From Scenedesmus sp. PABB004 (Eukaryota): a DNA stretch of 64,000 bases. Positions 3,887 through 31,427 of the stretch are shown here, one piece after another (positions within the stretch are counted from its first letter, which is position 1; each line of letters begins with the position of its first letter). The DNA is taken from NCBI GenBank assembly GCA_014905635.1, contig JABVCE010000011.1:744001-808000 (forward strand), given 5' to 3'. Made by a program: the position numbers and the translations under genes. The notes under the pieces are model-generated. The model saw only the letters and a list, made by a program, of their open reading frames with translations. It did no database searches and was not told the DNA's origin.

Positions 3887-7469
<3,583 letters not shown>

Positions 7470-8071
7470 CCCGCGGGCGCGCCGCGGCGCCTGCGGCGCG
7501 CGCGCCGGGCGCTACGCCTTGGGCCGGACCACGCTCGGACGCCGATCGATCAGGTGGGAACGCGCGACGAGCCCAAGGGCCGCTGCTGCGGGCGTGGCCG
7601 CGCGGGCTGCTGCTGCGCGGGCTGCTGCTGCGCGGCAGGCGCGGTCGTGGGGGCCGGCGAGTCTGGCGCGCTGGGCGTGGGAGAGGCCGGATTGTGGGGG
7701 CCGGCGCGCCGGAGCGACAGGCCGGTTGACGCCGCCGCGCCTGCTCGGCGCCCGGGGCGCAGCAGGTCCGACAACCGCCGCGCGGGCGGGGGCGCACCAG
7801 CGCTCGGCCGGCTCCAGCTCCAGCCGGGGCCATCCACGGCAGCTGGTGTCACAGCGCAGGTGGCAGGGGCCTGCCGCCGTGGCGGCGGCCAGCGTGCGGC
7901 GTCGCGGCCAGCGCAGCAGGGCTCGCCGGCGCAGAGCCCCGCGGACTGGCAAGCGCCGCCGCCGCGGCCGCCGTCATCACCACGCACGCGCCGCCTCACA
8001 CAGCAGCTGCCTGGCAGCTCCCACTGGCAGCTCGCGCCACACGTGCGCCGCGGCGGCCGCCGCCGGCAGCC

Positions 8072-11000
8072 ATGCACGCCCTGCTGCTCCACCGCGGCGC
8101 CAGCGCCCTGGCGGCGCGGCCGACCGGGATCAGGCGCGCCGTAGACGTCTGCAGGGTGCGCCAGGCCGGCGTTCCGCGCGTCAGCAGCAGCGCTGACGCG
8201 GTGAGCGAGGAGGAGGCCGAGCGCTTCGAGCGCATTGCCGCCGCGCTGGTGGAGAAGCTCAAGGACCTGCCCGACGGAGAGCTGGAGCCGGAAGGTGGGG
8301 AGCTCTCGGGCGCAGCCGCTTGCCGCGGCGCGGCCCGGCAGCCGCCGCGCGGGCCACGCACGCGCCGCCGCTGCTGCCGCCTGTCGTCGGCGGCGGCGGC
8401 GGCTCTGGCAATGCATGCAGCTGGCCAGGAGCGCTCAGCAGGCCGCCGGGACGCAGGGCAGCTGCGCGGCGCCGCCGCTGCTGCCCCGGGTGCCGCAACC
8501 GCCGGGCGCCGGCCGCGTGGTGCACGCCCGCTCGCCGCCCGCAGACGCCTTTGCTGACGAGGACCTGCTGCTGGAGTTTGGCTCCGTCGCCACGCCGCAG
8601 CAGGCCGCCGACGTGCAGCAGCGCCTCGACGAGCGCCGCGCGGCCGCGGCGGCCGCCGCGACGTCGTCGGCCGGCGCCGCCGCGCCCGCGTTTGTGCCGC
8701 GCCGCCTGCGCCGCACGGCGCTGCCGCTCGAGGCGCTGCCCAAGGTCGCGATCGTGGGCCGGCCCAACGTCGGCAAGAGCGCGATGTTCAACCGCCTCGC
8801 CGGCGCGGCGCTGGCGGTCGTCTATGACTACCCAGGTGCCCGCACCGCCCGCCGCTGCCCGCTGCCCGCTGCATGCTGCCCGCTGCCCGCTGCCCACTGC
8901 CCGCTGCCCGCGCTGCCCGCTGGGCGCTTGCCGACGCCGCCCGGCTGCCGGCGTGCGTGCACCGCTGCGCAGGCGTCACGCGCGACCGGCTCTACACGCG
9001 GGCCTTCTGGGGCGACAAGGAGTTTGTGCTCATTGACACCGGTGCGCGGCAGGCTGGGCCGGGCCGGGCTGGGCTGGCGCGGCAGGCGGCGCAAGCGGGG
9101 GCGCGCGCGGGAACGAGCGCGCTGCTGCGGCGCGCCGCCGGCGCAGGCGGCCTCATGAGCGACGCGGCGAAGCTGCCAGCGGAGCAGCAGGCGGCGGCGA
9201 TGGCCTCGATCTCGGCGGAGGGCCTCCCCGCGGCGATCGAGCGCCAGGCGGCGGCGGGTGCGCGGCGCGGCGCGCGAGAGGGCGCGCGCGGCGTCCCGGC
9301 GCGGGCGGCGGTGCCGCCTGCCGCCCGCCCGCCGGCAGGTGCCCGCCCTCGCGTCACTGCCGACGCCGCCGCCCTCCCCGGCCGCGTGGCCGCGCTCGCA
9401 GGCGTGGCCGAGGCGGACAGCATCGTCCTGGTCGTGGACGGGCAGGCGGGGCTGCATCCGAGCGACGAGGAGGTGCTCGCCTGGCTGCGCAGCAACCACC
9501 CGGGCAAGCCGGTGGTGCTGGCGGTGAACAAGTGCGAGAGCTCCACGCGCGGCCCCACACAGGTGCGGCGGCGGGGTCTGGCGGGCGCTGCGCCGCGTGG
9601 TTTGGCGGGCGCTGCGTCGCGCGCGCGCGCGCCGGCCCCGCCGACGCGCGGCTGCCCCCGCCGGCGCCGCCGCCCGCGGCGCGCTGCCGCCGCGGCGCAG
9701 GCCGCGGAGTTCTGGTCGCTCGGCCTCGAGCCGCACCCGGTCAGCGCGATCAGCGGCACCGGCACCGGCGAGATGCTGGAGCGCCTCGTCGCGGGCCTGC
9801 CGCCGCCGCGCGACATGGCGGCGGTCGACGAGCGCGACAAGCCGCTGGCGGTGGCGATCGTGGGCCGGCCCAACGTCGGTGCGGCGGCGCGGGGCTCGCT
9901 GCTTGGCCTGGGGCTGTGTGTTTTTGGTTGCTTGGGCCTGCCCGAGGGTGCTCTCCGGACAGCCCGCGCGCGCGGCCAAAGCCCTGCCGGCAGCTCGAGC
10001 AGCACGACGGAGCAGCGACGGCGGCGGGCGGCGGCGGGCACGGCGCGCCGCGCTTGCCCCGCACTGCTGCCAGCCCTAGCCCGAGTCCCGAGTCGTCCAC
10101 CTCCGTAGACGAGGCGCTCGCTCGCCCACTCGCAGCCGCGCCAGGGCCCCGCATTGCACGCGCCCCCGCTCCCCGCGCGCCCGCGGCGCCAGCGCCGCCC
10201 GGGCCGGGCGCCATGCTTCAGCAGCGACCGGGACCGCCGCTGGTGCAGCAGCCGGGCCCCCGCCTCACGCAGCTGCGCGGCGCGGGGCCGGCCCGGCGCG
10301 GCGGGCGGCAGGCGCGGCATGCGGGGGCCGCCTGGCGCCTGCGCAGCGTGGAGCTGGACCTGGAGGCCGCCAGCGCGCCCGGGAGCAGCGCCGCGCTCGC
10401 CGGCAGCCCGCGCGCCGCGCCCGGCGGCAGCAGCAGCAGCGGCGGCGCCGCCGCCGACGACGACGTGCTGATCGAGTTCCGGGACGTGCACAAGTCCTTT
10501 GGCAGCAAGCGCATCCTGCAGGGCGCGAGCTTCAAGATCCGGCGCGGCGAGGCGGTCGGCATCATCGGCGCGAGCGGGACGGGCAAGTCCACGACGCTGC
10601 GCCTCGCCGCGGGGCTGCTCGCGCCCGACCGCGGCGAGATCCTCATCTGCGGCCGCCCCCGCGTGGGCCTGCTCAGCGACCAGACGGGCGAGGAGCCGCT
10701 GCGCGTGGGCATGGTCTTCCAGAACGCCGCGCTCTTTGACTCGCTGACCGTCGGCGAGAACGTCGGGTTCCTGCTGTACGAGCACTCGAGCCTCCCCGCG
10801 GCCGAGATCCGCGCGCTCGTCGCCGACTCGCTCGGCAATGTCGGGCTCAGCGGCGTGGAGGCGCTCTTCCCGAGCGAGCTGAGCGGGGGCATGAAGAAGC
10901 GCGTTGCGCTCGCGCGCGCGGTCGTGACGGACGTGCGCGACACGGCAGAGCAGGTGCTCATGTATGACGAGCCGACCGCGGGGCTCGACCCCGTCGCGTC

Positions 11001-13187
11001 GACCGTCGTGGAGGACCTCATCCGCAGCCTGCAGCAAAAGGCGCCGCCGCCGGCGCTGCAGCCGGGCGGCAACGGCGCCGCCGGCGCTGCCGCCAACGGC
11101 GCCGCCAACGGCGCCGCCGCCGCGGTCGCGAGCAGCGACGGCGGCGGCGGGGCCCCGCGGCGGGGCGGCATCAGCAGCTACATCGTGGTCACGCACCAGC
11201 ACAGCACGATCCGGCGCGCGGTCGACCGCATCATCTTCCTCCACCAGGGCCAGGTCGTGTGGGAGGGCAGCACCGCCGAGTTTGACACGACCGACGAGCC
11301 GATCGTGCGCCAGTTTGCCGAGGGCAGCCTGGAGGGGCCGATCGCGTACGTGTGACGGCCCGCGGCGCGGCGGCGGCGGCCGCCGCCGCTGCTGCCACCT
11401 GCCTCGCTCCTCCCTTCTGTGCGGCCGCGCGTGCGGCCGGGCCTGCCGTGCGCGCCGCTGCTGCGATCGCAGCGGCGCGGGGCGCGGGCGCCGCCCTTGT
11501 AATTGCGCCTCGCGGTCACGGCCGGGCGCGCGTCTGGCAGCTGCTCCCCGCCGCACCTGCCTTGTCCTCCTGCCCTCGTTCGTGGCTGGCGCGATCTGCC
11601 TGCCCCCTACCCCTGGCTCCCGGCGGCGTCGCGTCGCACGCCCCCCGCGCGCCCGCCCGCCCACTCACTCACTCACGCGCTCGCGCGCGCCGCCGCGGCC
11701 CCCCGCGCGCCGCCGCCGCCGCCGCCCGCCCGCGCCGCAGGCAAGAGCAGCCTGCTCAACGCGGTCGTCGGCGAGGAGCGCGCGATCGTGTGCGACATGA
11801 GCGGCACCACGCGCGACGCGGTCGACACGACGGTCACGCTGCCGGGCGGGCGGCAGCTGACGCTCATCGATACCGCGGGCATTCGCAAGCGCGCGCGCGT
11901 CGCCGACAGCAAGTGCGGCGCGCGCCCGCGCGGGGGCGGGCCGCGGCGGCGCCGCTGCGCGCGGGGCGGGGTGCGCGGGCGGCGGAGCGCGGAGCGCGGG
12001 CGGCGTGCCGAGCGCAGGCGGCGCCGCGCCGCGCCGCGCCGTGCCGCGCCGCGCAGGGACGGCGCGGAGCAGCTGTCGGTGGACCGCGCGATGCGCGCGG
12101 CGGGGCGGGCGGAGATTGTTGTCATGGTCGTTGACGGCAGCGAGGGCGTCACGCAGCAGGCGCGGCGCGGCGCGGCGGGGACGCAGGGGACCCGCGGCGC
12201 GGCAAGGGCGCGGCGCGGGCGGCGCCCGCGGGGGTGGCGCCCGCGGGCGGCGCGCGCGTGGGCGCGGGCTCCCATCTCACCCGCCGGCGGCGCCGCCGGG
12301 GCGCGTGTGTTCGCAGGACTTCCGGCTCTCCGAGCTGGTCGCGCGCGACGGCTGCGCGGCGGTGGTGGTCGTGAACAAGTGGGACTGCGTGCCGCCCAAG
12401 GCGGCGGAGGACATGGCGGCGTACAAGGCCGACGTGCAGGCGCAGCTGCGCCCTGTCGGCTGGGCGCCCGTGGTCTGCACCACCGCGAGGTGCGCCGCGC
12501 GCCGCACGCTGCGCGCCGTGTGCGCTGCGCGCTGTGTGCTGCGCCGCCCGCGCCCACACGCCCACGAGCCCCCGCCGCCGCGCGCGCGCGCCCCGCAGCA
12601 AGGGGCGCCGCGTGGACGAGGTCGTGGCCGCGGTGCTCGCCGTCGGCGAGCAGCACCGCCGCCGCGTGAGCACGGCGACGCTCAACCTCGTGCTGCGCGA
12701 GGCGGTCGCCTGGAAGGCGCCGCCGAGCCAGCGCGGCAGCGGCAAGCAGGGCAAGCTGTACTATGCGACGCAGGCGGCCGCGGGGCCGCCCACGTTTGTA
12801 CTGTTTGTCAACGACCCCCGCCTCTTCCCGGACGACTACCGCCGGTGCGGCGCGCGGCGCGGCCGCGCGGCGCGGCGCGGCGCGGCCGCGCTCGTGTGGC
12901 GACGGGGAGGGAGGGGGAGGGGCGTGCGCGCGCTGGCGCGGGCGTGCGGGCGGCGCGTGCGGGCGCGCGCCGAGCGGTGCCGCGCGGCCGCCGCGCGGCC
13001 CGCAGGTACATCGAGCGCAACGTGCGGCAGAACATGGGCTTTGAGGGCACGCCCATCCGATTCTGGTACCGCGCGCGCCGCACGGCCGAGAAGGCGCCGG
13101 GCGACGACAGGCCGGCCGGCGGCGCGGCGGCGGCGGGCGGCGGCCGCGGCGGCGGTGGTGGCCGCGGCGGCGGCGGCCGCGGCGGGC

Positions 13188-13218
<31 letters not shown>

Positions 13219-13276
13219 CGGCTGGCGCGGCGCGCGGTCGGGCGGCCGCGGCGGCGGCGGCGGGCGCGGGCGCTGA
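8072..13276 (+). CDS. engA: Plastid ribosome-biogenesis double GTPase EngA/Der, about 11 exons
   Basis: ATG 8072 with transit-peptide-like N-terminus; GD1 [24 protein letters not shown]2 [10 protein letters not shown] (split by intron 9879-11740), GTTRD, DTAG, NKWD; KH-like C-terminus [10 protein letters not shown] and FEGTPIR; RGG-rich tail; TGA 13276. Confidence 0.95.
10213..11355 (+). CDS. TGD3: Intronless TGD3/MlaF-type ABC ATPase (plastid lipid import), nested in an EngA intron
   Basis: Single ORF of 380 aa from gccATG 10213; transit-peptide-like N-terminus; [11 protein letters not shown], Walker [26 protein letters not shown], signature [32 protein letters not shown]-terminal [15 protein letters not shown] typical of TGD3. 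Confidence 0.93.
   Translation: MLQQRPGPPLVQQPGPRLTQLRGAGPARRGGRQARHAGAAWRLRSVELDLEAASAPGSSAALAGSPRAAPGGSSSSGGAAADDDVLIEFRDVHKSFGSKRILQGASFKIRRGEAVGIIGASGTGKSTTLRLAAGLLAPDRGEILICGRPRVGLLSDQTGEEPLRVGMVFQNAALFDSLTVGENVGFLLYEHSSLPAAEIRALVADSLGNVGLSGVEALFPSELSGGMKKRVALARAVVTDVRDTAEQVLMYDEPTAGLDPVASTVVEDLIRSLQQKAPPPALQPGGNGAAGAAANGAANGAAAAVASSDGGGGAPRRGGISSYIVVTHQHSTIRRAVDRIIFLHQGQVVWEGSTAEFDTTDEPIVRQFAEGSLEGPIAYV
11498..11502 (+). promoter_or_regulatory. TGTAA chlorophyte poly(A) signal of TGD3, inside the EngA intron
   Basis: cttgtaatt about 140 nt after the TGD3 stop; UGUAA is the established chlorophyte poly(A) signal. Confidence 0.7.
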
Positions 13277-13303
13277 CCCGTCGTCGCCTGTGAACCGCGG
13301 CCC

Positions 13304-13308
13304 TGTAA
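13304..13308 (+). promoter_or_regulatory. TGTAA poly(A) signal of EngA
   Basis: cctgtaacc 27 nt after the EngA stop. Confidence 0.65.
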
Positions 13309-13479
13309 CCAGCCGCGCGGCCGAGGCCAATGCAGAGCCCCCGGCCGCCGCACCGCCAGCAGCGGCGCGCCCTCGCGTCCGGCCGCGCGGGCGAGCCGGC
13401 GCTGCGCCGCCGCGGCGTGCACGAGCAGCGCTGCTCGCGCGGCGCCGGCTAGCGCCGGGCGCCTGTGCCGCCAGCAGCC

Positions 13480-16400
13480 ATGGCGCCTGAGCCGCCGCAC
13501 GTGCTGGCGGCCAAGCTGGCCGACCCGGTGCTGCAGTTTGCGGAGCGGCCGAACGTGCAGCGCCCGCCCGCTGGCAAGTTCGCCCGCAAAAGCCGCGTTC
13601 GCGTGTCCCCGGAGGTGCGAAGGCGCTGCTGGGGCGAGCGCGGTGCTTGCAAGCTGCGCCCCAGGCCGCTGCTCTCCGCGCGCCGGCGAGCAGGTGCTTG
13701 GGATGCTGAGGCAGGTGAGCGCCGACCTGGACGCTGCACAGCGGCAGTTCATCGCCTGGCAGACGTGGGGCGAGGCGGGCGAGAGGTGTGGAGGCCGCCG
13801 CGCGCGGCGGCAGCGCTGCGCGCCGCGCGCTGCCGCCCACGCGCGCGCCGCCGCCGCCGCAGCCTGCTGAAGCTGGCGCCAGACCTCGTGGTGCTGCCCC
13901 CCGGTGGCGGTGCCGCTGAGGCCGGCGACGACGCGGGCGAGCGGAGCGGCTCGGGCAGCGGCGGCGACTGGCCGGCCGGCGGTGAGCGGCGGCGGCCGGC
14001 GGCGGCGGACGGCGGCAGCCAGTTGCACCCAGCGCGCCGCCCCGCCGCGCCGACCGCAGGCGCTGGGGGCACATGCCGATGCTGGCGCGGCTGCGTGCGG
14101 CCTCGATGAAGCAGCGCCGGCCGGCGCCGCAGCCTCGGGGCCAGGCGGCGGCGGGGGCGCCCACGGCGGCCGCGCCGGCCAAGCCGCCGGCCGAGGAGGG
14201 CTGGGACGGACTGCCGGACAGCCCCAAGGCCACGTGGGAGCAGGTGCGGATGCGACGCGTTGCGCCGCGCCGCCCGCCCCGGCCGCGCTCGCACCTGACT
14301 GGTGCCGACCTGTGCAGGTGATGCGCGCAAAGAAGCAGGCCCGTGAAGACGGCAGGGCCGCCGCGCTGCGCGTCAAGCACGCCACGCTGGTCATCCAGGC
14401 ACGCCGCGCGCGGCGCAGGGCGCCCAGGGGCGCCGGCTGCCGAGACAAGCAGCGCGCCGCACCGCCGCTGAGCGCCGCGCCGCCGGCCGCGCGGTGTGGT
14501 TGCAGCACGCGTGGCGCTCGCACCTGCAGCGGCGCGCCAGCCGCGCACTGGCGATGATGACGCTGCGCGCCAAGGTGTGAGCGCCGCTGCGCAGCAGGAG
14601 TGCGGGGGCGGCGCCGCGCCCGGCTGCGCCGCGGCCGGCCAGCGACGATGTGTTGCGCCGGCGCAGGTGCGCCGCGTGCAGCGGGCAGTGTATGTGAGCA
14701 ACCTGCTGCGCAAGGGCCCCGGGGCGAAGCCCGCCGGCGCCGTGTCGGGTGAGGCGCGAGCGTTTCACGCAGGCACGCGCGCCGCCCGTTTGCGCCGCGG
14801 CGGCGGCTGCCGCGGCCGCCGATGACGCAGCCGGCGCGGCGCGGCGCCGCCGCGACGCAGCCGACGGCGCAGGCGCGCGCGCCGCGGAGGGCGGCGAGCC
14901 CGCCAGCGAGGACGGCGCGGCGGAGGCGGCCGAGCTGCAGCTGGCGCTGCAGCGCGCGCTCGCTGAGGGCCACCTCAGCATGCTGGACGTTGCACAGCTC
15001 GGCCTGAGCCACCTGGTGGCGGCGACGGCGCCGCGCGCTGCGGCGGCACATGCAGCCGCCAGCCCCCGCGCCGTGGTGAGCGGCGCCGTCGGCGGGATCG
15101 CGCTTGCCCCTGACGGCGCTCACGCCAGCGGCGCCAGCGAGGCGGAGGCCGTGCCCGAGGCCGTCGCCACACCTGACGCCGAGGCAGAGGGTGGCGACAG
15201 CACGGCGGTGCAGGGGGAGGGCTTCAGCTCGGCGCCACTTGCCAGGTCGAAGACCGGGCCCGTGGTCAGGGTGAGCGAGGCTGATTCGCGCCGCGCTGCA
15301 CGGCGCAGGCTGGCGCGGCGCGTCTGACGGGGACCCATCCCCCGCCCACCCACTTCCCGTGCCTGCCCGCGCAGCGCCCGCTGCGCCTGCTGCGCGTCGA
15401 TACCGATGCGCCTGCCGGCAGCAGCTGGCAGGGGACGCTGCGCACGCCCGGCGGCCTCTCCTCGCCGGGCGGGCGGCGCCTGGCCAGGAGCGGCTTCGGC
15501 AGCCCCGCCGGCCGGGGCCCCAGCAGCCCTGGCTGGCCTGGCTCACCGGGAAGCGCGCGCAGCGTTGGCAGCCCTGGCAGCCTCGGCAGCGCCGGCTCGC
15601 CCAGTAGCCGCGGCGCGCCGGGCTCGCCCAAGCGCGCCAGCGGCAGCCGTGCGGCGGCACGCTCTGCCGGCGTGCGCGTGGGGCGCGGCGTGAGCGTCGT
15701 GCTGGCCGCCGCGGACAATGCGGTGCCCATTGCGCACGGCCACGGCGGCGTGTCCGTGCGCGCCAGGAGCGCCGTGCGCCAGGCGCTGCACTCGCACGTC
15801 AGCCGCTTCAGCGCCGCCGCGGCGGCAGCGGCGGCAGCGGCGGCTGCCGACGTGGACGCCGCAGCGACCGGTGAAGCAGGCGGAGCGGGTGGCGTGCTGG
15901 CGGGCGCGTGCGGCGACTGCAGCGTCACAGCTGGAGGGCGTGAGCCGGGCAGCGCTGGCGGCCACAGGCACAGCCGGCCCGGCACGCCCGAGGCAGGCAA
16001 TGGCGTGGCGGCTGGCAGCCATGACGGGCGTGCCAGGGTCAGTGGTCGGAGCAGCAGGGTTGCCTTTGCTTCCAACGCCGGGGCGCCGGCTGAGGCTTGC
16101 CACGCTGGTGCGCCGCCCAGCTGCGCACTGGGTGCGCGCAGCAGCCTGGACGGTAGCAGCACCGCACGCTCAGCGTGCCAGGCGCAGGAGCAGGAGGGCG
16201 CGTGCCTGGCGCCCTCCCAGGAGGCGTGGCTGTGTGGTGCCGGCGACGGCCCGCCAGTCGGCGCGCAGCCTGCGGACGTTGGCGGTGGGCACAGCAGCAG
16301 CGACGTGCCGCTTGGTCACGCCGAGGGGGCCAGCCGCCGCGGCTGCGCTGGCCGCGCGCCCAGGGTCAGCGGCAGTGGGCGCGCCTCAGCCTGCAGCGAC

Positions 16401-24656: not shown

Positions 24657-25071
24657 CCTGCCGGCGCGGGGCCTCCAGGCCCCGGGCGGGGCTGGGAGGG
24701 CCGCAGGGAGGGCGCCCTGGCGTTCACTGCCCGGACGGCGGCGGCGCGGGGCGCGGCGGCCCCGGTGCTGGCCGGGCGAGGAAGGATCGGCCTGGGCAGC
24801 AGCAGCAGGCCGGGGGGCTGGTCCTGTCTGGCGGGGGGCGCGGGCGGGGCCGTGAGGCGGTGCGGCAGTCCGGCGGGGAGCGTCGCGAGCAGGGCGCATC
24901 ATGGCGGGGCGGCGCGCCGGCGCGGCGCGGTGTTCAGGGCGCTGCCGTCACGCGCGGGAGCGGGGGGCGCGCGCCGGCGGCTCCGGGACCGGGTTGCACC
25001 GGCCGCCGGCGCCGTGGTTGGCGCCGCCGCCGTGGTCGGCGGTGAACGGCGGCCGGGCGACTGGGCAGCGC

Positions 25072-26563
25072 CGGCGCCGCAGCGCGCGACCGGCCGCGTG
25101 AGCGCGCGCGCGCGCGGAGTCCTGGCGGCGCGGTCTAGGCCACCGGTGCTGCTCGTGGCGAGCTCAGGGCCCTGCGGCCGCCGCCGTCCGCACACGCGGT
25201 GGCGAGAGCTCGCGAAAGCGCCGCGTGCGCTGTGCGCTGTGCGCGGCTGCAGGGGGCCAGCCCACAGCGGCCGAGGGATCCGCAGCCGAGCTGCGGCGTG
25301 TGGTGACGTGTGCAGGCATCAGCCGCTGCGGCGGCACCCCGACAGCGCGCAGGCAGCGCTGGCGGCGCGCTGTGCGGCACGCTGGCGGCCGCGCTCTGCG
25401 CGGGCGGTGACGCGCGCGCGGCGCCTCCGTGCGGCTGCGGCGGCCCCCCGGGCGGCCCCAGCCGCTCCTCAGGGTTGCGTGGCTGTTGTGGGCGAGCCGG
25501 GGCGGCGGTCAGAGCGTCAAAAACAGCTTGTTGGAGCCCTCAAAAGTGCTCTCATCCAGGTTCGAACTGGAGACCTTTCGCGTGTGAGGCGAACGTGATA
25601 ACCAACTACACCATGAGAGCATGCACGTTCAACTGAGTCGTAGTAAATATAATCAAGTTACCTCAAACTTGCAAAATCGCAGGCCCCAAAAATTCACCCA
25701 AAAAGACCCCCGGAATCAGCAGGAAAAATTGTGGCGAGGTCCGCCGAAAGACGGGGGCCTCGTGGGGCGAGCAGCGGCTGCAGCAGGCCCAGCAAGCGGC
25801 GGTGGCGTCGTTCTGGGCCTGGCTGGCAGACTTAGTTGCGTGCCGCGCGGCCCCGCGACAGTGGTCTGCGCAGGTCCCTGCGCAGCACCCCTTCCTCTGC
25901 ACCGTGCCGGACGACGCCGACCCACGGGCGGCGCCGCGCATCTGGCTGCGGGCCGGTGCATGAGGCTCTTTGTGTGTGTGCGGGCGTGTGTGTTTGGTGC
26001 TGCCCCGCTGACAGTTCTGTAGGCCGGTGTGTGTGGAGTCCCGGGGCACCGCCGGGATGGGCGTGCGTGCGACCGGGGTGGGGGGAGAAGGCGGCGTCGG
26101 TCGCGGGGGCAGCGGCGGGGCGGGGGGCGCGCGGGGGTTGGTCCTCGCCGCGGTTCTCCTGCCTTGTGCCACGGTCCGGCGCGCGATCGAGACCAGCGGG
26201 CGGCTTGCAGGTGGGTTTGCTGGTGAGTTGCGCGCGTCTGGGCCGCGCCATGCTCGCTACACGCCCTGCGCCGGCTTGCCAGCATGCGATCCCGTTTGCG
26301 GGCTGCTCGGTTGGTCGCACTTGGAGGACACTGACACGTGCGGTGGCGGGGAGGGAGTTGGTCAGGCCCGCCAGGCGTTCCGAAGTGGGACGCTCAACCG
26401 CCCAGAGCGTACCGGGCCCCGCCGTGTAACCAACAACACACCGGGCGATTCTCGGGAGATCTCGACGTCCTAACAAACGAAACACACAAACGGGCGTCGG
26501 CGGGACGCGGCCGCGCGCCCACCGGGCACGCGCACGCCGGCGCACCGGGCTGCGGCGCGGGGC
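25072..26563. repeat. 1.49-kb direct repeat, copy A (contains tRNA-Val)
   Basis: Near-identical to 29935-31427 (offset 4863, then 4864 after a 1-bp G indel near 26105). Confidence 0.95.
25547..25620 (-). tRNA. trnV-CAC: tRNA-Val (anticodon CAC), copy 1
   Basis: GCTCTCA acceptor stem pairs with TGAGAGC; D-arm TGGTGTAGTTGGTTATCAC; anticodon arm TTCGC-CTCACAC-GCGAA; T-arm CCAGTTCGAACCTGG; followed by a TTTT Pol III terminator. Confidence 0.95.
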
Positions 26564-29860: not shown

Positions 29861-29934
29861 ACCGCCGTGGTCAGCGGTGGGCGGCGGCGACTGGGCGACC
29901 AGGCAGCGCCGGCGCCGGCGCCGGTCGCGCGCTG

Positions 29935-31427
29935 CGGCGCCGCAGCGCGCGACCGGCCGCGTGAGCGCGCGCGCGCGCGGAGTCCTGGCGGCGCGGTCTA
30001 GGCCACCGGTGCTGCTCGTGGCGAGCTCAGGGCCCTGCGGCCGCCGCCGTCCGCACACGCGGTGGCGAGAGCTCGCGAAAGCGCCGCGTGCGCTGTGCGC
30101 TGTGCGCGGCTGCAGGGGGCCAGCCCACAGCGGCCGAGGGATCCGCAGCCGAGCTGCGGCGTGTGGTGACGTGTGCAGGCATCAGCCGCTGCGGCGGCAC
30201 CCCGACAGCGCGCAGGCAGCGCTGGCGGCGCGCTGTGCGGCACGCTGGCGGCCGCGCTCTGCGCGGGCGGTGACGCGCGCGCGGCGCCTCCGTGCGGCTG
30301 CGGCGGCCCCCCGGGCGGCCCCAGCCGCTCCTCAGGGTTGCGTGGCTGTTGTGGGCGAGCCGGGGCGGCGGTCAGAGCGTCAAAAACAGCTTGTTGGAGC
30401 CCTCAAAAGTGCTCTCATCCAGGTTCGAACTGGAGACCTTTCGCGTGTGAGGCGAACGTGATAACCAACTACACCATGAGAGCATGCACGTTCAACTGAG
30501 TCGTAGTAAATATAATCAAGTTACCTCAAACTTGCAAAATCGCAGGCCCCAAAAATTCACCCAAAAAGACCCCCGGAATCAGCAGGAAAAATTGTGGCGA
30601 GGTCCGCCGAAAGACGGGGGCCTCGTGGGGCGAGCAGCGGCTGCAGCAGGCCCAGCAAGCGGCGGTGGCGTCGTTCTGGGCCTGGCTGGCAGACTTAGTT
30701 GCGTGCCGCGCGGCCCCGCGACAGTGGTCTGCGCAGGTCCCTGCGCAGCACCCCTTCCTCTGCACCGTGCCGGACGACGCCGACCCACGGGCGGCGCCGC
30801 GCATCTGGCTGCGGGCCGGTGCATGAGGCTCTTTGTGTGTGTGCGGGCGTGTGTGTTTGGTGCTGCCCCGCTGACAGTTCTGTAGGCCGGTGTGTGTGGA
30901 GTCCCGGGGCACCGCCGGGATGGGCGTGCGTGCGACCGGGGTGGGGGGAGAAGGCGGCGTCGGTCGCGGGGGGCAGCGGCGGGGCGGGGGGCGCGCGGGG
31001 GTTGGTCCTCGCCGCGGTTCTCCTGCCTTGTGCCACGGTCCGGCGCGCGATCGAGACCAGCGGGCGGCTTGCAGGTGGGTTTGCTGGTGAGTTGCGCGCG
31101 TCTGGGCCGCGCCATGCTCGCTACACGCCCTGCGCCGGCTTGCCAGCATGCGATCCCGTTTGCGGGCTGCTCGGTTGGTCGCACTTGGAGGACACTGACA
31201 CGTGCGGTGGCGGGGAGGGAGTTGGTCAGGCCCGCCAGGCGTTCCGAAGTGGGACGCTCAACCGCCCAGAGCGTACCGGGCCCCGCCGTGTAACCAACAA
31301 CACACCGGGCGATTCTCGGGAGATCTCGACGTCCTAACAAACGAAACACACAAACGGGCGTCGGCGGGACGCGGCCGCGCGCCCACCGGGCACGCGCACG
31401 CCGGCGCGCCGGGCTGCGGCGCGGGGC
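29935..31427. repeat. 1.49-kb direct repeat, copy A' (contains tRNA-Val)
   Basis: Near-identical to 25072-26563. Confidence 0.95.
30410..30483 (-). tRNA. trnV-CAC: tRNA-Val (anticodon CAC), copy 2
   Basis: Identical to 25547-25620. Confidence 0.95.

Follow-up and report, generated by a model that had tools for sequence, protein, structure and literature searches.

In the 64-kb window analyzed here, the whole stretch of contig presented above, a gene for the ABC ATPase TGD3 lies wholly within intron 6 of the gene for the GTPase EngA/Der, on the same strand (Table 1). From sequence comparison we consider it probable (roughly 0.7) that the two are an ancient pair of host and nested gene in the chlorophycean green algae, in which TGD3 forms its own cistron. 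Both would be nuclear genes, the host encoding EngA/Der, a GTPase of plastid ribosome assembly, and the guest encoding TGD3, which serves as stromal ATPase of the Mla-like lipid importer of chloroplasts, TGD1-2-3. A preliminary description of the window had placed TGD3 inside the EngA intron interrupting the P-loop of the second G domain (GD2), with both genes on one strand. This nesting is borne out by the coordinates and by relatives of the two genes, and all of the positions given there were confirmed (donor 9879, acceptor 11740, TGD3 ORF 10213-11355, TGTAA 11498).

Table 1. Features of the EngA/TGD3 locus, in window coordinates; a slash marks an exon-intron boundary.
Feature	Position	Strand	Remarks
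EngA/Der host gene	8072..13276	+	plastid-type GTPase, 11 exons, 665 aa, frame intact
EngA exons 1-5	8072-8294, 8545-8835, 8973-9041, 9147-9257, 9402-9562	+	
EngA exons 6-11	9701-9878, 11741-11912, 12057-12159, 12317-12489, 12599-12844, 13006-13276	+	
EngA exon 6	9701..9878	+	3' end ...AIVGRPNV plus first base of GD2 Walker A Gly codon
EngA intron 6	9879..11740	+	1862 bp, phase 1, donor G/GTGCGGCG, acceptor CGCCGCAG/GC
T/G-rich patch (GGCTGTGTGTTTTTGGTTGCTTGG)	9905..9930	+	27-52 nt into intron 6
TAG ending EngA frame if intron 6 is retained	10106..10108	+	product 420 codons, first G domain (GD1) only
Candidate alternative acceptor CGCAG/	10131..10135	+	exon start 10136, 77 nt before TGD3 ATG
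TGD3 CDS (MlaF-type ABC ATPase)	10213..11355	+	380 codons plus TGA 11353-11355, without intron
Ala/Gly/Asn-rich low-complexity linker in TGD3	11041..11166	+	residues 277-318, 12-nt repeats
TGTAA, presumed TGD3 poly(A) signal	11498..11502	+	143 nt 3' of TGD3 stop codon
C-rich pyrimidine tract	11503..11740	+	TGD3 poly(A) signal to EngA acceptor; pyrimidines 66%, GC skew -0.28
EngA exon 7	11741..11912	+	begins GC-AAG-AGC; completes GD2 P-loop
TGTAA, presumed EngA poly(A) signal	13304..13308	+	28 nt 3' of EngA stop codon

The EngA pieces hit TIGR03594 collinearly, at model positions 1-33, up to 187, 186-241, 271-332 and 331-410. Unspliced, they score 43, 105.5, 88.8, 44.5 and 58.4 bits; the curated cut-off of 306.7 is for the whole protein. 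Exons 2-6 match MMR_HSR1 in addition to TIGR03594, and GD1 is complete in the spliced model (G1 GRPNVGKS, G3 DTGG, G4 NKCE). The P-loop of GD2 is intact only once the predicted splice joins 9878 to 11741 (GRPNVG/KS), and the TIGR03594 matches ending at model position 187 and covering 186-241 abut across this join. The C-terminal KH-like domain (PF14714) is found at 1.1e-18 on exon 10 and 3.6e-4 on exon 11. Aligned with EngA of Scenedesmus sp. NREL 46B-D3, the spliced model is 85% identical and gapless at all ten junctions; the sole gap is a 14-residue stretch absent from the NREL 46B-D3 model. This identity to the EngA of a Scenedesmus fits the earlier assignment of the window to Sphaeropleales.

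Intron 6 splits the Gly codon of the second P-loop. The tail of exon 6 (...AAC GTC G) ends at 9878, the intron opens with GT at 9879 (TCG/GTGCGGCG) and it closes with AG at 11739-11740 (CGCCGCAG/GC). The nine other EngA introns are 105-250 bp long (median 144) versus 1862 bp for intron 6. Intron 6 is long solely because of its guest. From the EngA donor to the TGD3 ATG is 334 nt.

TGD3 matches Pfam ABC_tran (PF00005) at 3.9e-27 and has the full set of motifs (Walker A, Q-loop, LSGG signature, Walker B, H-loop); in our alignment A1 no residue of Walker A, the signature, Walker B or the H-loop varies. The top NCBIfam match is MlaF, at 153.8 bits versus a bacterial equivalog cut-off of 441. The top PDB matches are MlaF chains (7d06, 6z5u, 6xbd), and the best named protein matches carry the label 'TRIGALACTOSYLDIACYLGLYCEROL 3'. 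Among ABC ATPases, the nested ORF appears closest to the Mla/TGD subfamily. In excerpts of PMC5948301, TGD3 is described as the ATPase of the TGD1-2-3 chloroplast lipid importer. Its Ala/Gly/Asn-rich linker is 42 aa in the window versus about 10 aa in the relatives of alignment A1.

The start Met of TGD3 aligns with the start Met of two related proteins (P0003, P0018) and an internal Met of a third (P0002), and an N-terminal presequence of about 84 residues is conserved with the same three. P0006 and P0018, from transcriptome assemblies, are labelled complete TGD3 ORFs. The presumed TGD3 poly(A) signal lies 238 nt upstream of the EngA acceptor. TGTAA occurs 13 times on both strands of the window versus 3.6 expected, and 0 of 100 shuffles reached 13. 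With a conserved start Met, a conserved presequence and a presumed poly(A) signal of its own, TGD3 is likely to be its own cistron. GC3 is 0.96 in TGD3 and 0.95 in EngA, values that suggest TGD3 is native and a long resident.

To see how far the layout extends, we compared relatives. Seven of 80 metagenome loci were examined (L001-L006 and L010), all at 55% identity or above. Five of the seven, from four organisms (L001, L002, L003, L005, L006), have EngA up to the GD2 P-loop and then TGD3. In each of the five a GT donor comes directly after GRPNV-G, as in the window, and the TGD3 ATG follows on the same strand 136-417 nt past the donor. Six named Chlamydomonadales have chimeric EngA-N::TGD3 protein models that switch exactly after GRPNV: C. 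schloesseri (P0070), Gonium (P0076), Tetrabaena (P0052), Edaphochlamys (P0125), Sanguina (P0174) and Haematococcus (P0147). The Haematococcus model runs from EngA-N to TGD3 (..HQHSTIR) and then to EngA exon 7 (KSSLLNAMCGEE..), and a second model at this locus (P0133) is a full-length EngA spliced across the site. Only the window shows the complete EngA-TGD3-EngA sandwich directly; the chimeric model of Haematococcus, from a second order, shows it indirectly, and the metagenome loci end before exon 7. Among the nine longer TGD3-containing proteins listed, two contain EngA domains (P0125 and P0147). Full-length spliced EngA ORFs of relatives are found on mRNA-sized contigs (P0124, 690 aa on 2298 nt; P0132, an MMETSP transcript). 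The nest is common to Sphaeropleales-type and Chlamydomonadales lineages.

Some elements of the intron recur as well. The T/G-rich patch past the donor is possibly a TGD3 promoter element or a splicing element. Of the 50-nt windows profiled over 9800-10300, the one from 9900 has the lowest GC (62%), and TTTTT occurs only 14 times on both strands of the 64-kb window. T-rich tracts 3' of the donor are also present in L001, L005 and L003; none was found after the donor of the nine other EngA introns of the window. L001 and L002 have a pyrimidine tract 3' of TGD3 (66-71% pyrimidines) comparable to that of the window, and both loci end in a C/T-rich tract. An Rfam scan of 7400-13600 gave zero matches at E up to 0.1. 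Minus-strand ORFs over the intron (890 and 319 aa) are without a Pfam family and were rejected as artefacts of GC content.

Not every member of the class has the nest: in a Monoraphidium minutum MAG and in Chlamydomonas sp. UWO241, EngA and TGD3 appear unlinked, as judged solely from EngA and TGD3 contigs listed with differing sizes. By this measure the two genes appear unlinked in seven named species in all, the other five being trebouxiophytes. Metagenome locus L004, which groups with Chlamydomonas sp. UWO241 in the tree, has no EngA within 3.7 kb upstream of TGD3. The two genes are annotated separately in Pleodorina. Identifiers of C. reinhardtii TGD3 and EngA were not found in the literature searched. 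A contig scan of genomes had prokaryotes only among its matches, cyanobacteria being best with a TGD3 identity of 48-49%. The DNA fetched around the two closest cyanobacterial TGD3 relatives (L081, L082) contains no der, so the nest does not appear to be a relic of prokaryotic linkage.

The preliminary description also suggested a retrocopy origin from the lack of introns in TGD3. The gene is without introns in the window and, over the aligned core, in L001 and L003. This origin is not supported: in L006 at least two introns interrupt the nested ortholog, and the nest is shared by Sphaeropleales-type and Chlamydomonadales lineages. In the window there is no A-run 3' of the TGD3 TGTAA that could be a poly(A) remnant, and a search for flanking direct repeats as a target-site duplication gave only GC-rich low-complexity matches. 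The L006 introns and the missing A-run and direct repeat speak against a processed retrocopy.

As its own cistron, TGD3 would be a separate transcription unit, with its promoter and 5' UTR in the 334 nt past the EngA donor. It would be translated from its own conserved AUG with a putative transit peptide of its own, and its mRNA would end at its own TGTAA. Full EngA mRNA would then require that RNA polymerase II pass the poly(A) signal of TGD3 without termination and that 9878 be spliced to 11741. Some interference between host and guest is expected given this geometry, and would show as premature 3' ends and GD1-only EngA transcripts. The nest probably persists through lock-in, since losing the intron would take an essential gene with it, although in sequence conservation by function would look alike. 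The lineage of L001 and L005 fits lock-in: its EngA has lost the four upstream introns and kept the intron 6 donor.

The nest could be a regulatory module under selection since the common ancestor of Chlamydomonadales and Sphaeropleales, which we regard as unlikely. Two events, cleavage at the poly(A) signal of TGD3 and initiation from its promoter past the donor, would then compete with removal of intron 6. The output of full EngA would be tied, inversely or in proportion, to TGD3 expression, and isoforms such as GD1-only EngA or an EngA-TGD3 fusion would arise as by-products or act as effectors.

The preliminary description proposed a switch between two fates of the pre-mRNA: splicing of intron 6, which yields full EngA, and cleavage at the TGTAA of TGD3, which yields a bicistronic mRNA. 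The latter would encode GD1-only EngA and TGD3, and plastid ribosome assembly would be coupled to lipid import. The geometry allows this, with TGD3 on the same strand and its TGTAA ahead of the acceptor. The TAG that ends the retained-intron frame sits 104 nt 5' of the TGD3 ATG, an inter-ORF gap smaller than the median gaps of algal bicistrons (260 and 212 nt; excerpts of PMC7896298), and zero ATG occur between the donor and the TGD3 ATG. Mammalian nested genes are reported to cause host intron retention and cryptic polyadenylation (excerpts of PMC3192792). A Volvox reticuliferus model (P0123) is a GD1-only EngA reading 18 codons into the intron, but it may equally be a gene-prediction artefact of the nest. 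The upstream ORF speaks against the switch. According to the parts of PMC7896298 and PMC11291117 consulted, documented algal bicistrons avoid AUGs ahead of ORF2, and restoring one AUG in ORF1 reduces ORF2 output to background. Here ORF1 would have 420 codons (1263 nt, versus reported medians of 600 and 444 nt in excerpts of PMC7896298), contain six internal ATGs and start in the context GCC ATG, with a purine at -3. The window locus lacks the short, AUG-poor upstream ORF with a weak start context expected of such bicistrons. A keyword search of the supplementary polycistronic-locus tables of C. reinhardtii and C. zofingiensis returned neither TGD3 nor EngA, the only ABC entry being ABCI11-type. 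On this analysis the switch seems to fit known algal bicistrons poorly, and we think it quite unlikely.

Very unlikely, in our estimate, is an isoform in which an alternative 3' splice site joins EngA exon 6 to a point just 5' of TGD3 or inside it, giving an in-frame EngA(GD1)-TGD3 fusion. Such fusions are predicted in six public annotations. These models are not independent, as gene finders that forbid overlap must chain same-strand nested exons in frame, and their junctions vary by species (PSTSAP, EGQS, elsewhere). The window has a single CGCAG/ between the exon 6 donor and the TGD3 ATG, and this motif is invariant in 10 of 10 real EngA acceptors. Spliced to the exon 6 donor, an exon starting at 10136 would read in the TGD3 frame, but an in-frame match is a one-in-three chance, and use of the site as an alternative acceptor is speculative. 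Upstream of the TGD3 ATG, coding potential was not significant in five lineages compared with shuffles: the TGD3 frame has 0 stops in three of them (shuffle P of 0 stops 0.35, 0.11 and 0.12) and 2-3 stops in the remaining two. The conserved TGD3 Met and presequence are as expected of a free-standing protein.

An assembly artefact or a disrupted EngA pseudogene, with TGD3 inserted or mis-joined and a working EngA elsewhere, would draw on the fact that evidence on EngA and TGD3 copies of this genome is confined to the window, but is almost certainly wrong, as the donor and acceptor match the consensus perfectly, all EngA exons are intact with a GC3 of 0.95, and the layout is repeated in four metagenome organisms and six named species. 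Misassembly had been named at the outset as a finding that would refute the nesting; to judge from this repetition the nest is neither a misassembly nor recent.

Read as a host/nested pair, the locus is a same-strand nest of essential plastid-function genes that appears stable across two green-algal orders. It is a natural setting in which to ask how a host gene copes with having a promoter and a poly(A) signal inside a short intron, and it offers an example of an intron made indispensable by the gene within it. The nest also explains a recurring annotation error, namely EngA::TGD3 chimeras in at least six public chlorophycean proteomes and some truncated EngA models, both of which can mislead domain-architecture and orthology analyses. 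Interference between host and guest, if real, would tie the translation capacity of the chloroplast to the supply of membrane lipids. We found no description of the EngA/TGD3 nest in the literature on Chlamydomonas nested genes or on TGD3 together with EngA.

Both proteins resemble their known counterparts. EngA has two G domains and a KH-like domain, like bacterial EngA and plant DER (described for chloroplast DER in excerpts of PMC3883289), and TGD3 is an ABC ATPase with all motifs, like Arabidopsis TGD3 and bacterial MlaF. Host/nested protein-coding pairs are described for Drosophila, mouse and human in excerpts of PMC11694760, PMC3192792, PMC3814207 and PMC5174743. As in those pairs, a complete gene lies inside a long intron of another, and transcriptional crosstalk such as host intron retention and premature polyadenylation is expected. 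Unlike them, the window pair sits in a compact green-algal genome of 78% GC with other introns of about 0.15 kb, shares one strand, has two plastid-acting products and is conserved across two algal orders. The seven named species in which EngA and TGD3 are apparently unlinked differ from the window in this respect. Green-algal bicistronic loci, as far as excerpts of Gallaher et al. (2021; PMC7896298) and PMC11291117 describe them, likewise have two close same-strand ORFs with a short gap; they are served by a single promoter and a single poly(A) site, and their upstream ORFs are short and poor in AUGs. In contrast, the upstream ORF of the window is long, contains six ATGs and needs intron retention, and the host EngA continues downstream of its guest.

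The chloroplast lipid-import gene TGD3 lies on the same strand inside an intron of EngA (also Der/DER), the one that splits the P-loop of the second G domain (GD2). The preliminary description proposed this arrangement; its coordinates match ours, and the layout recurs in five metagenome loci. The nesting is real and old. Features are collected in the table below.

Features of the EngA host gene, the TGD3 guest gene and their metagenome relatives (slash, splice site)
Feature	Position	Strand	Description
EngA exons 1–6	8072–8294, 8545–8835, 8973–9041, 9147–9257, 9402–9562, 9701–9878	+	reading frames and splice consensus
EngA exons 7–11	11741–11912, 12057–12159, 12317–12489, 12599–12844, 13006–13276	+	reading frames and splice consensus
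EngA intron 6	9879–11740	+	1862 bp, against 105–250 bp for the nine remaining EngA introns
EngA intron 8	12160–12316	+	GC donor CAG/GCGCGG, ordinary CGCAG/ acceptor
TGD3 CDS	ATG 10213 to TGA 11353–11355	+	380 codons, unbroken, wholly within EngA intron 6
Intronless EngA stretch, L001	8569–9255		sequence of metagenome relative
Intronless EngA stretch, L005	770–1459		sequence of metagenome relative

The EngA model was assembled from reading frames and splice consensus in a window of 77.8% G+C with no N. Its 11 exons join to 1998 nt (665 codons) with the frame intact. Donors are GT at nine of the ten introns, mostly G/GTGCGG, and GC at the remaining one (12160); all ten acceptors read CGCAG/. The exon junction across the GC-donor intron is confirmed by orthologs, and there is no GT near that donor. 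Unspliced pieces match TIGR03594, the EngA/Der equivalog, in order (model 1–33, up to 187, 186–241, 271–332, 331–410), and the KH-like domain PF14714 is found at 1.1e-18. The spliced product is 85% identical to EngA of Scenedesmus sp. NREL 46B-D3 (Scenedesmaceae, Sphaeropleales) and gap-free at the junctions; the sole gap is 14 residues absent from the latter's model. Intron 6 interrupts the Walker A motif of GD2 after base 1 of a Gly codon (GRPNVG/KS). DER function is assigned following PMC3883289.

Some features of the host gene were noted in passing. The C-terminus of EngA is a long Arg/Gly-rich tail of RGG type (13120–13273), similar in Scenedesmus (P0129) and Monoraphidium (P0146) and absent from the Chlamydomonadales sequences read. 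Upstream, a PP5-type Ser/Thr phosphatase (TPR and PPP5 domains; 5696–7470, minus strand) is transcribed divergently, the two start codons being about 600 bp apart. A stop-free ORF (8828–10108) runs in frame through EngA introns 2–5 and 230 nt into intron 6. Such open introns are a side effect of 78% GC, so long ORFs in the window are not evidence of coding.

The guest is a MlaF-type ABC ATPase. It has an ABC_tran domain (3.9e-27), MlaF as its top NCBIfam match and MlaF chains 7d06, 6z5u and 6xbd as nearest solved structures. It also matches green-algal proteins annotated TRIGALACTOSYLDIACYLGLYCEROL 3 (best database E values down to 6.6e-153), and its function is assigned following PMC5948301. 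Its start Met aligns with the starts of two public models (P0003, P0018) and with an internal Met of an over-extended ORF (P0002). In alignment A1, of TGD3 proteins from the window and relatives, presequence motifs including QQPG..L.QL..G are kept. Two relatives, P0006 and P0018, are transcriptome shotgun assembly entries labelled complete ORFs. GC3 is 0.96 for TGD3 and 0.95 for EngA; TGD3 equals its host in this respect and is thus native and long resident. The window protein has a 42-residue Ala/Gly/Asn linker, encoded by 12-nt repeats (11041–11166), that separates the D-loop region from the H-loop and is far shorter in the A1 relatives (about 10 residues).

Of 80 loci retained from a metagenome scan using the TGD3 protein, the seven at ≥55% identity were examined; the remaining 73, at ≤45% identity, look bacterial and were left out. 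In five of the seven (L001, L002, L003, L005 and L006), TGD3 is preceded on its own strand by sequence encoding EngA residues ~125–346. These five represent four organisms, since a single difference in 3200 positions separates L001 from L002. All five have a GT donor splitting the codon after GRPNV at the identical place and phase, with the TGD3 ATG 136–417 nt further on. EngA is absent from the 3.7 kb of DNA upstream of TGD3 in L004, and L010 has just 4 nt of upstream DNA, too little to be informative. Downstream of TGD3, the DNA of every examined locus ends before EngA exon 7.

Public proteins extend the pattern. Chimeric models that follow EngA to ...AIVGRPNV and then enter TGD3 occur in six named Chlamydomonadales: Chlamydomonas schloesseri (P0070), Gonium pectorale (P0076), Tetrabaena socialis (P0052), Edaphochlamys debaryana (P0125), Sanguina aurantia (P0174) and Haematococcus lacustris (P0147). 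We read these as gene order and not as fusion proteins, because they are expected from overlap-forbidding gene finders at a same-strand nest. The 909-aa P0147 runs from the EngA N-terminal part through TGD3 to HQHSTIR, then KSSLLNAMCGEE, then the remaining EngA, which means that in Haematococcus the same pair of EngA exons physically flanks TGD3. Haematococcus also has a conventional full-length EngA model (P0133), in which splicing crosses the site, and in Volvox reticuliferus an EngA model (P0123) ends 18 codons past GRPNVG.

Seven named species have EngA and TGD3 on contigs of unequal length, the basis for calling them unlinked. Five are trebouxiophytes (Chlorella sorokiniana, two Micractinium species, Coccomyxa subellipsoidea and [Myrmecia] bisecta); the others are a Monoraphidium minutum MAG and Chlamydomonas sp. 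UWO241. The literature searched does not describe this locus in C. reinhardtii. A quick TGD3 tree (30 rows, L002 and L006 omitted) has SH-aLRT support only and an unresolved backbone. It places all trebouxiophyte-type rows in one clade with no nested members, joins UWO241, L004 and C. eustigma (support 99) and scatters the ten nested rows over several chlorophycean groups. Because intron position and phase are identical, the simplest history would be one origin before the Chlamydomonadales/Sphaeropleales split, then a few relocations. The fetched DNA of the two closest prokaryotic TGD3 relatives (cyanobacterial, 48–49% identity) does not contain der.

A retrocopy origin had been suggested by the lack of introns in TGD3. 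No intron interrupts the gene in the window, nor its aligned core in L001 and L003. The proposal fares poorly: the nested ortholog in L006 is interrupted by two or more introns (one following ...SLGKV, another following ...GAEQ), and the window sequence shows neither an A-run after the TGD3 TGTAA nor a flanking duplication. In the Volvocales chimeras the joins fall at residue 6 (PSTSAP) or ~48 (EGQS) of Pleodorina TGD3, which suggests 5' introns there. Retrocopying is no more likely than secondary intron loss in a lineage that also lost EngA introns.

Intron 6 carries candidate signals of its own. The distances reported earlier are correct: the EngA donor lies 334 nt before the TGD3 ATG, and the frame of a retained intron stops at TAG 10106–10108, 104 nt before that ATG. 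A TGTAA also stands where described, at 11498, 143 nt past the TGD3 stop codon, and a second follows the EngA stop codon by 28 nt. The motif is strongly enriched in the GC-rich window (3.6 sites expected, 13 present, a count that none of 100 shuffles attained). Being over-represented and placed after both stops, the two are credible poly(A) signals. A T/G-rich patch 27–52 nt past the intron 6 donor includes a TTTTT, a pentamer that occurs just 14 times in the whole window; tracts rich in T also follow the donor in L001, L005 and L003, and in none of the nine other window EngA introns. The 238 nt from TGTAA to the acceptor are filled by a C-rich pyrimidine tract (66% pyrimidines, GC skew -0.28), with a comparable tract downstream of TGD3 in L001 and L002. 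Patch and tract may aid the nested arrangement. Elsewhere in the window, a direct duplication (~25047–26404 and 29910–31268, spacing 4863–4864 bp; sampled 300-nt blocks 96–100% identical) has TGTAA and T-runs in each copy.

TGD3 looks like its own cistron, because its start Met and presequence are conserved, the transcriptome ORFs are labelled complete and it has its own TGTAA. From these features we infer that a promoter and 5' UTR would lie within 9879–10212 and that TGD3 would have a separate mRNA. The EngA pre-mRNA would then have to read past the poly(A) signal of TGD3, and only afterwards could intron 6 be spliced out.

The preliminary description instead envisaged a switch, in which a transcript from the EngA promoter to the TGD3 TGTAA yields TGD3 protein from a bicistronic mRNA. 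Such a transcript is geometrically possible, and mammalian nested genes are reported to provoke host intron retention and cryptic polyadenylation (PMC3192792). Algal bicistronic loci, as PMC7896298 describes them, have one promoter and one poly(A) site each, with upstream ORFs of median 600 and 444 nt. Start codons are reported to be disfavoured ahead of ORF2, and an AUG restored in ORF1 to abolish ORF2 output (PMC11291117). For producing TGD3 protein, the window locus matches these systems poorly: ORF1 would span 1263 nt (420 codons), its start would have a GCC ATG context, and six more ATGs would precede that of TGD3. In a keyword search of seven supplementary files of PMC7896298, there was no TGD3, MlaF, EngA or Der locus, and the lone ABC entry was an ABCI11-type gene. 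We consider the switch unlikely. An in-frame EngA(GD1)–TGD3 protein, made through a candidate acceptor at 10131–10135, is very improbable: this is the only CGCAG/ between donor and ATG and it is in frame, but a frame match has one-in-three odds by chance and, across lineages, the TGD3 frame ahead of its ATG shows no significant lack of stops.

Persistence of the nest has a possible explanation: an intron in which an essential gene resides would be impossible to lose. Conservation alone is then no proof of functional coupling. The L001/L005 lineage fits the idea: EngA residues ~125–346 (134–346) are intronless there, whereas the window has four introns in this stretch, and the donor of the TGD3-bearing intron is kept.

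The literature searched, on TGD3 with EngA and on same-strand nested genes in Chlamydomonas, contained no description of this pair. Host/nested gene pairs are common in animals (PMC11694760), and EngA/TGD3 is the same kind of arrangement. What is new is which genes are paired, both of them with plastid functions and bacterial ancestry; a same-strand guest in an intron that is long only because of the guest; and the conservation of the nest across two algal orders.
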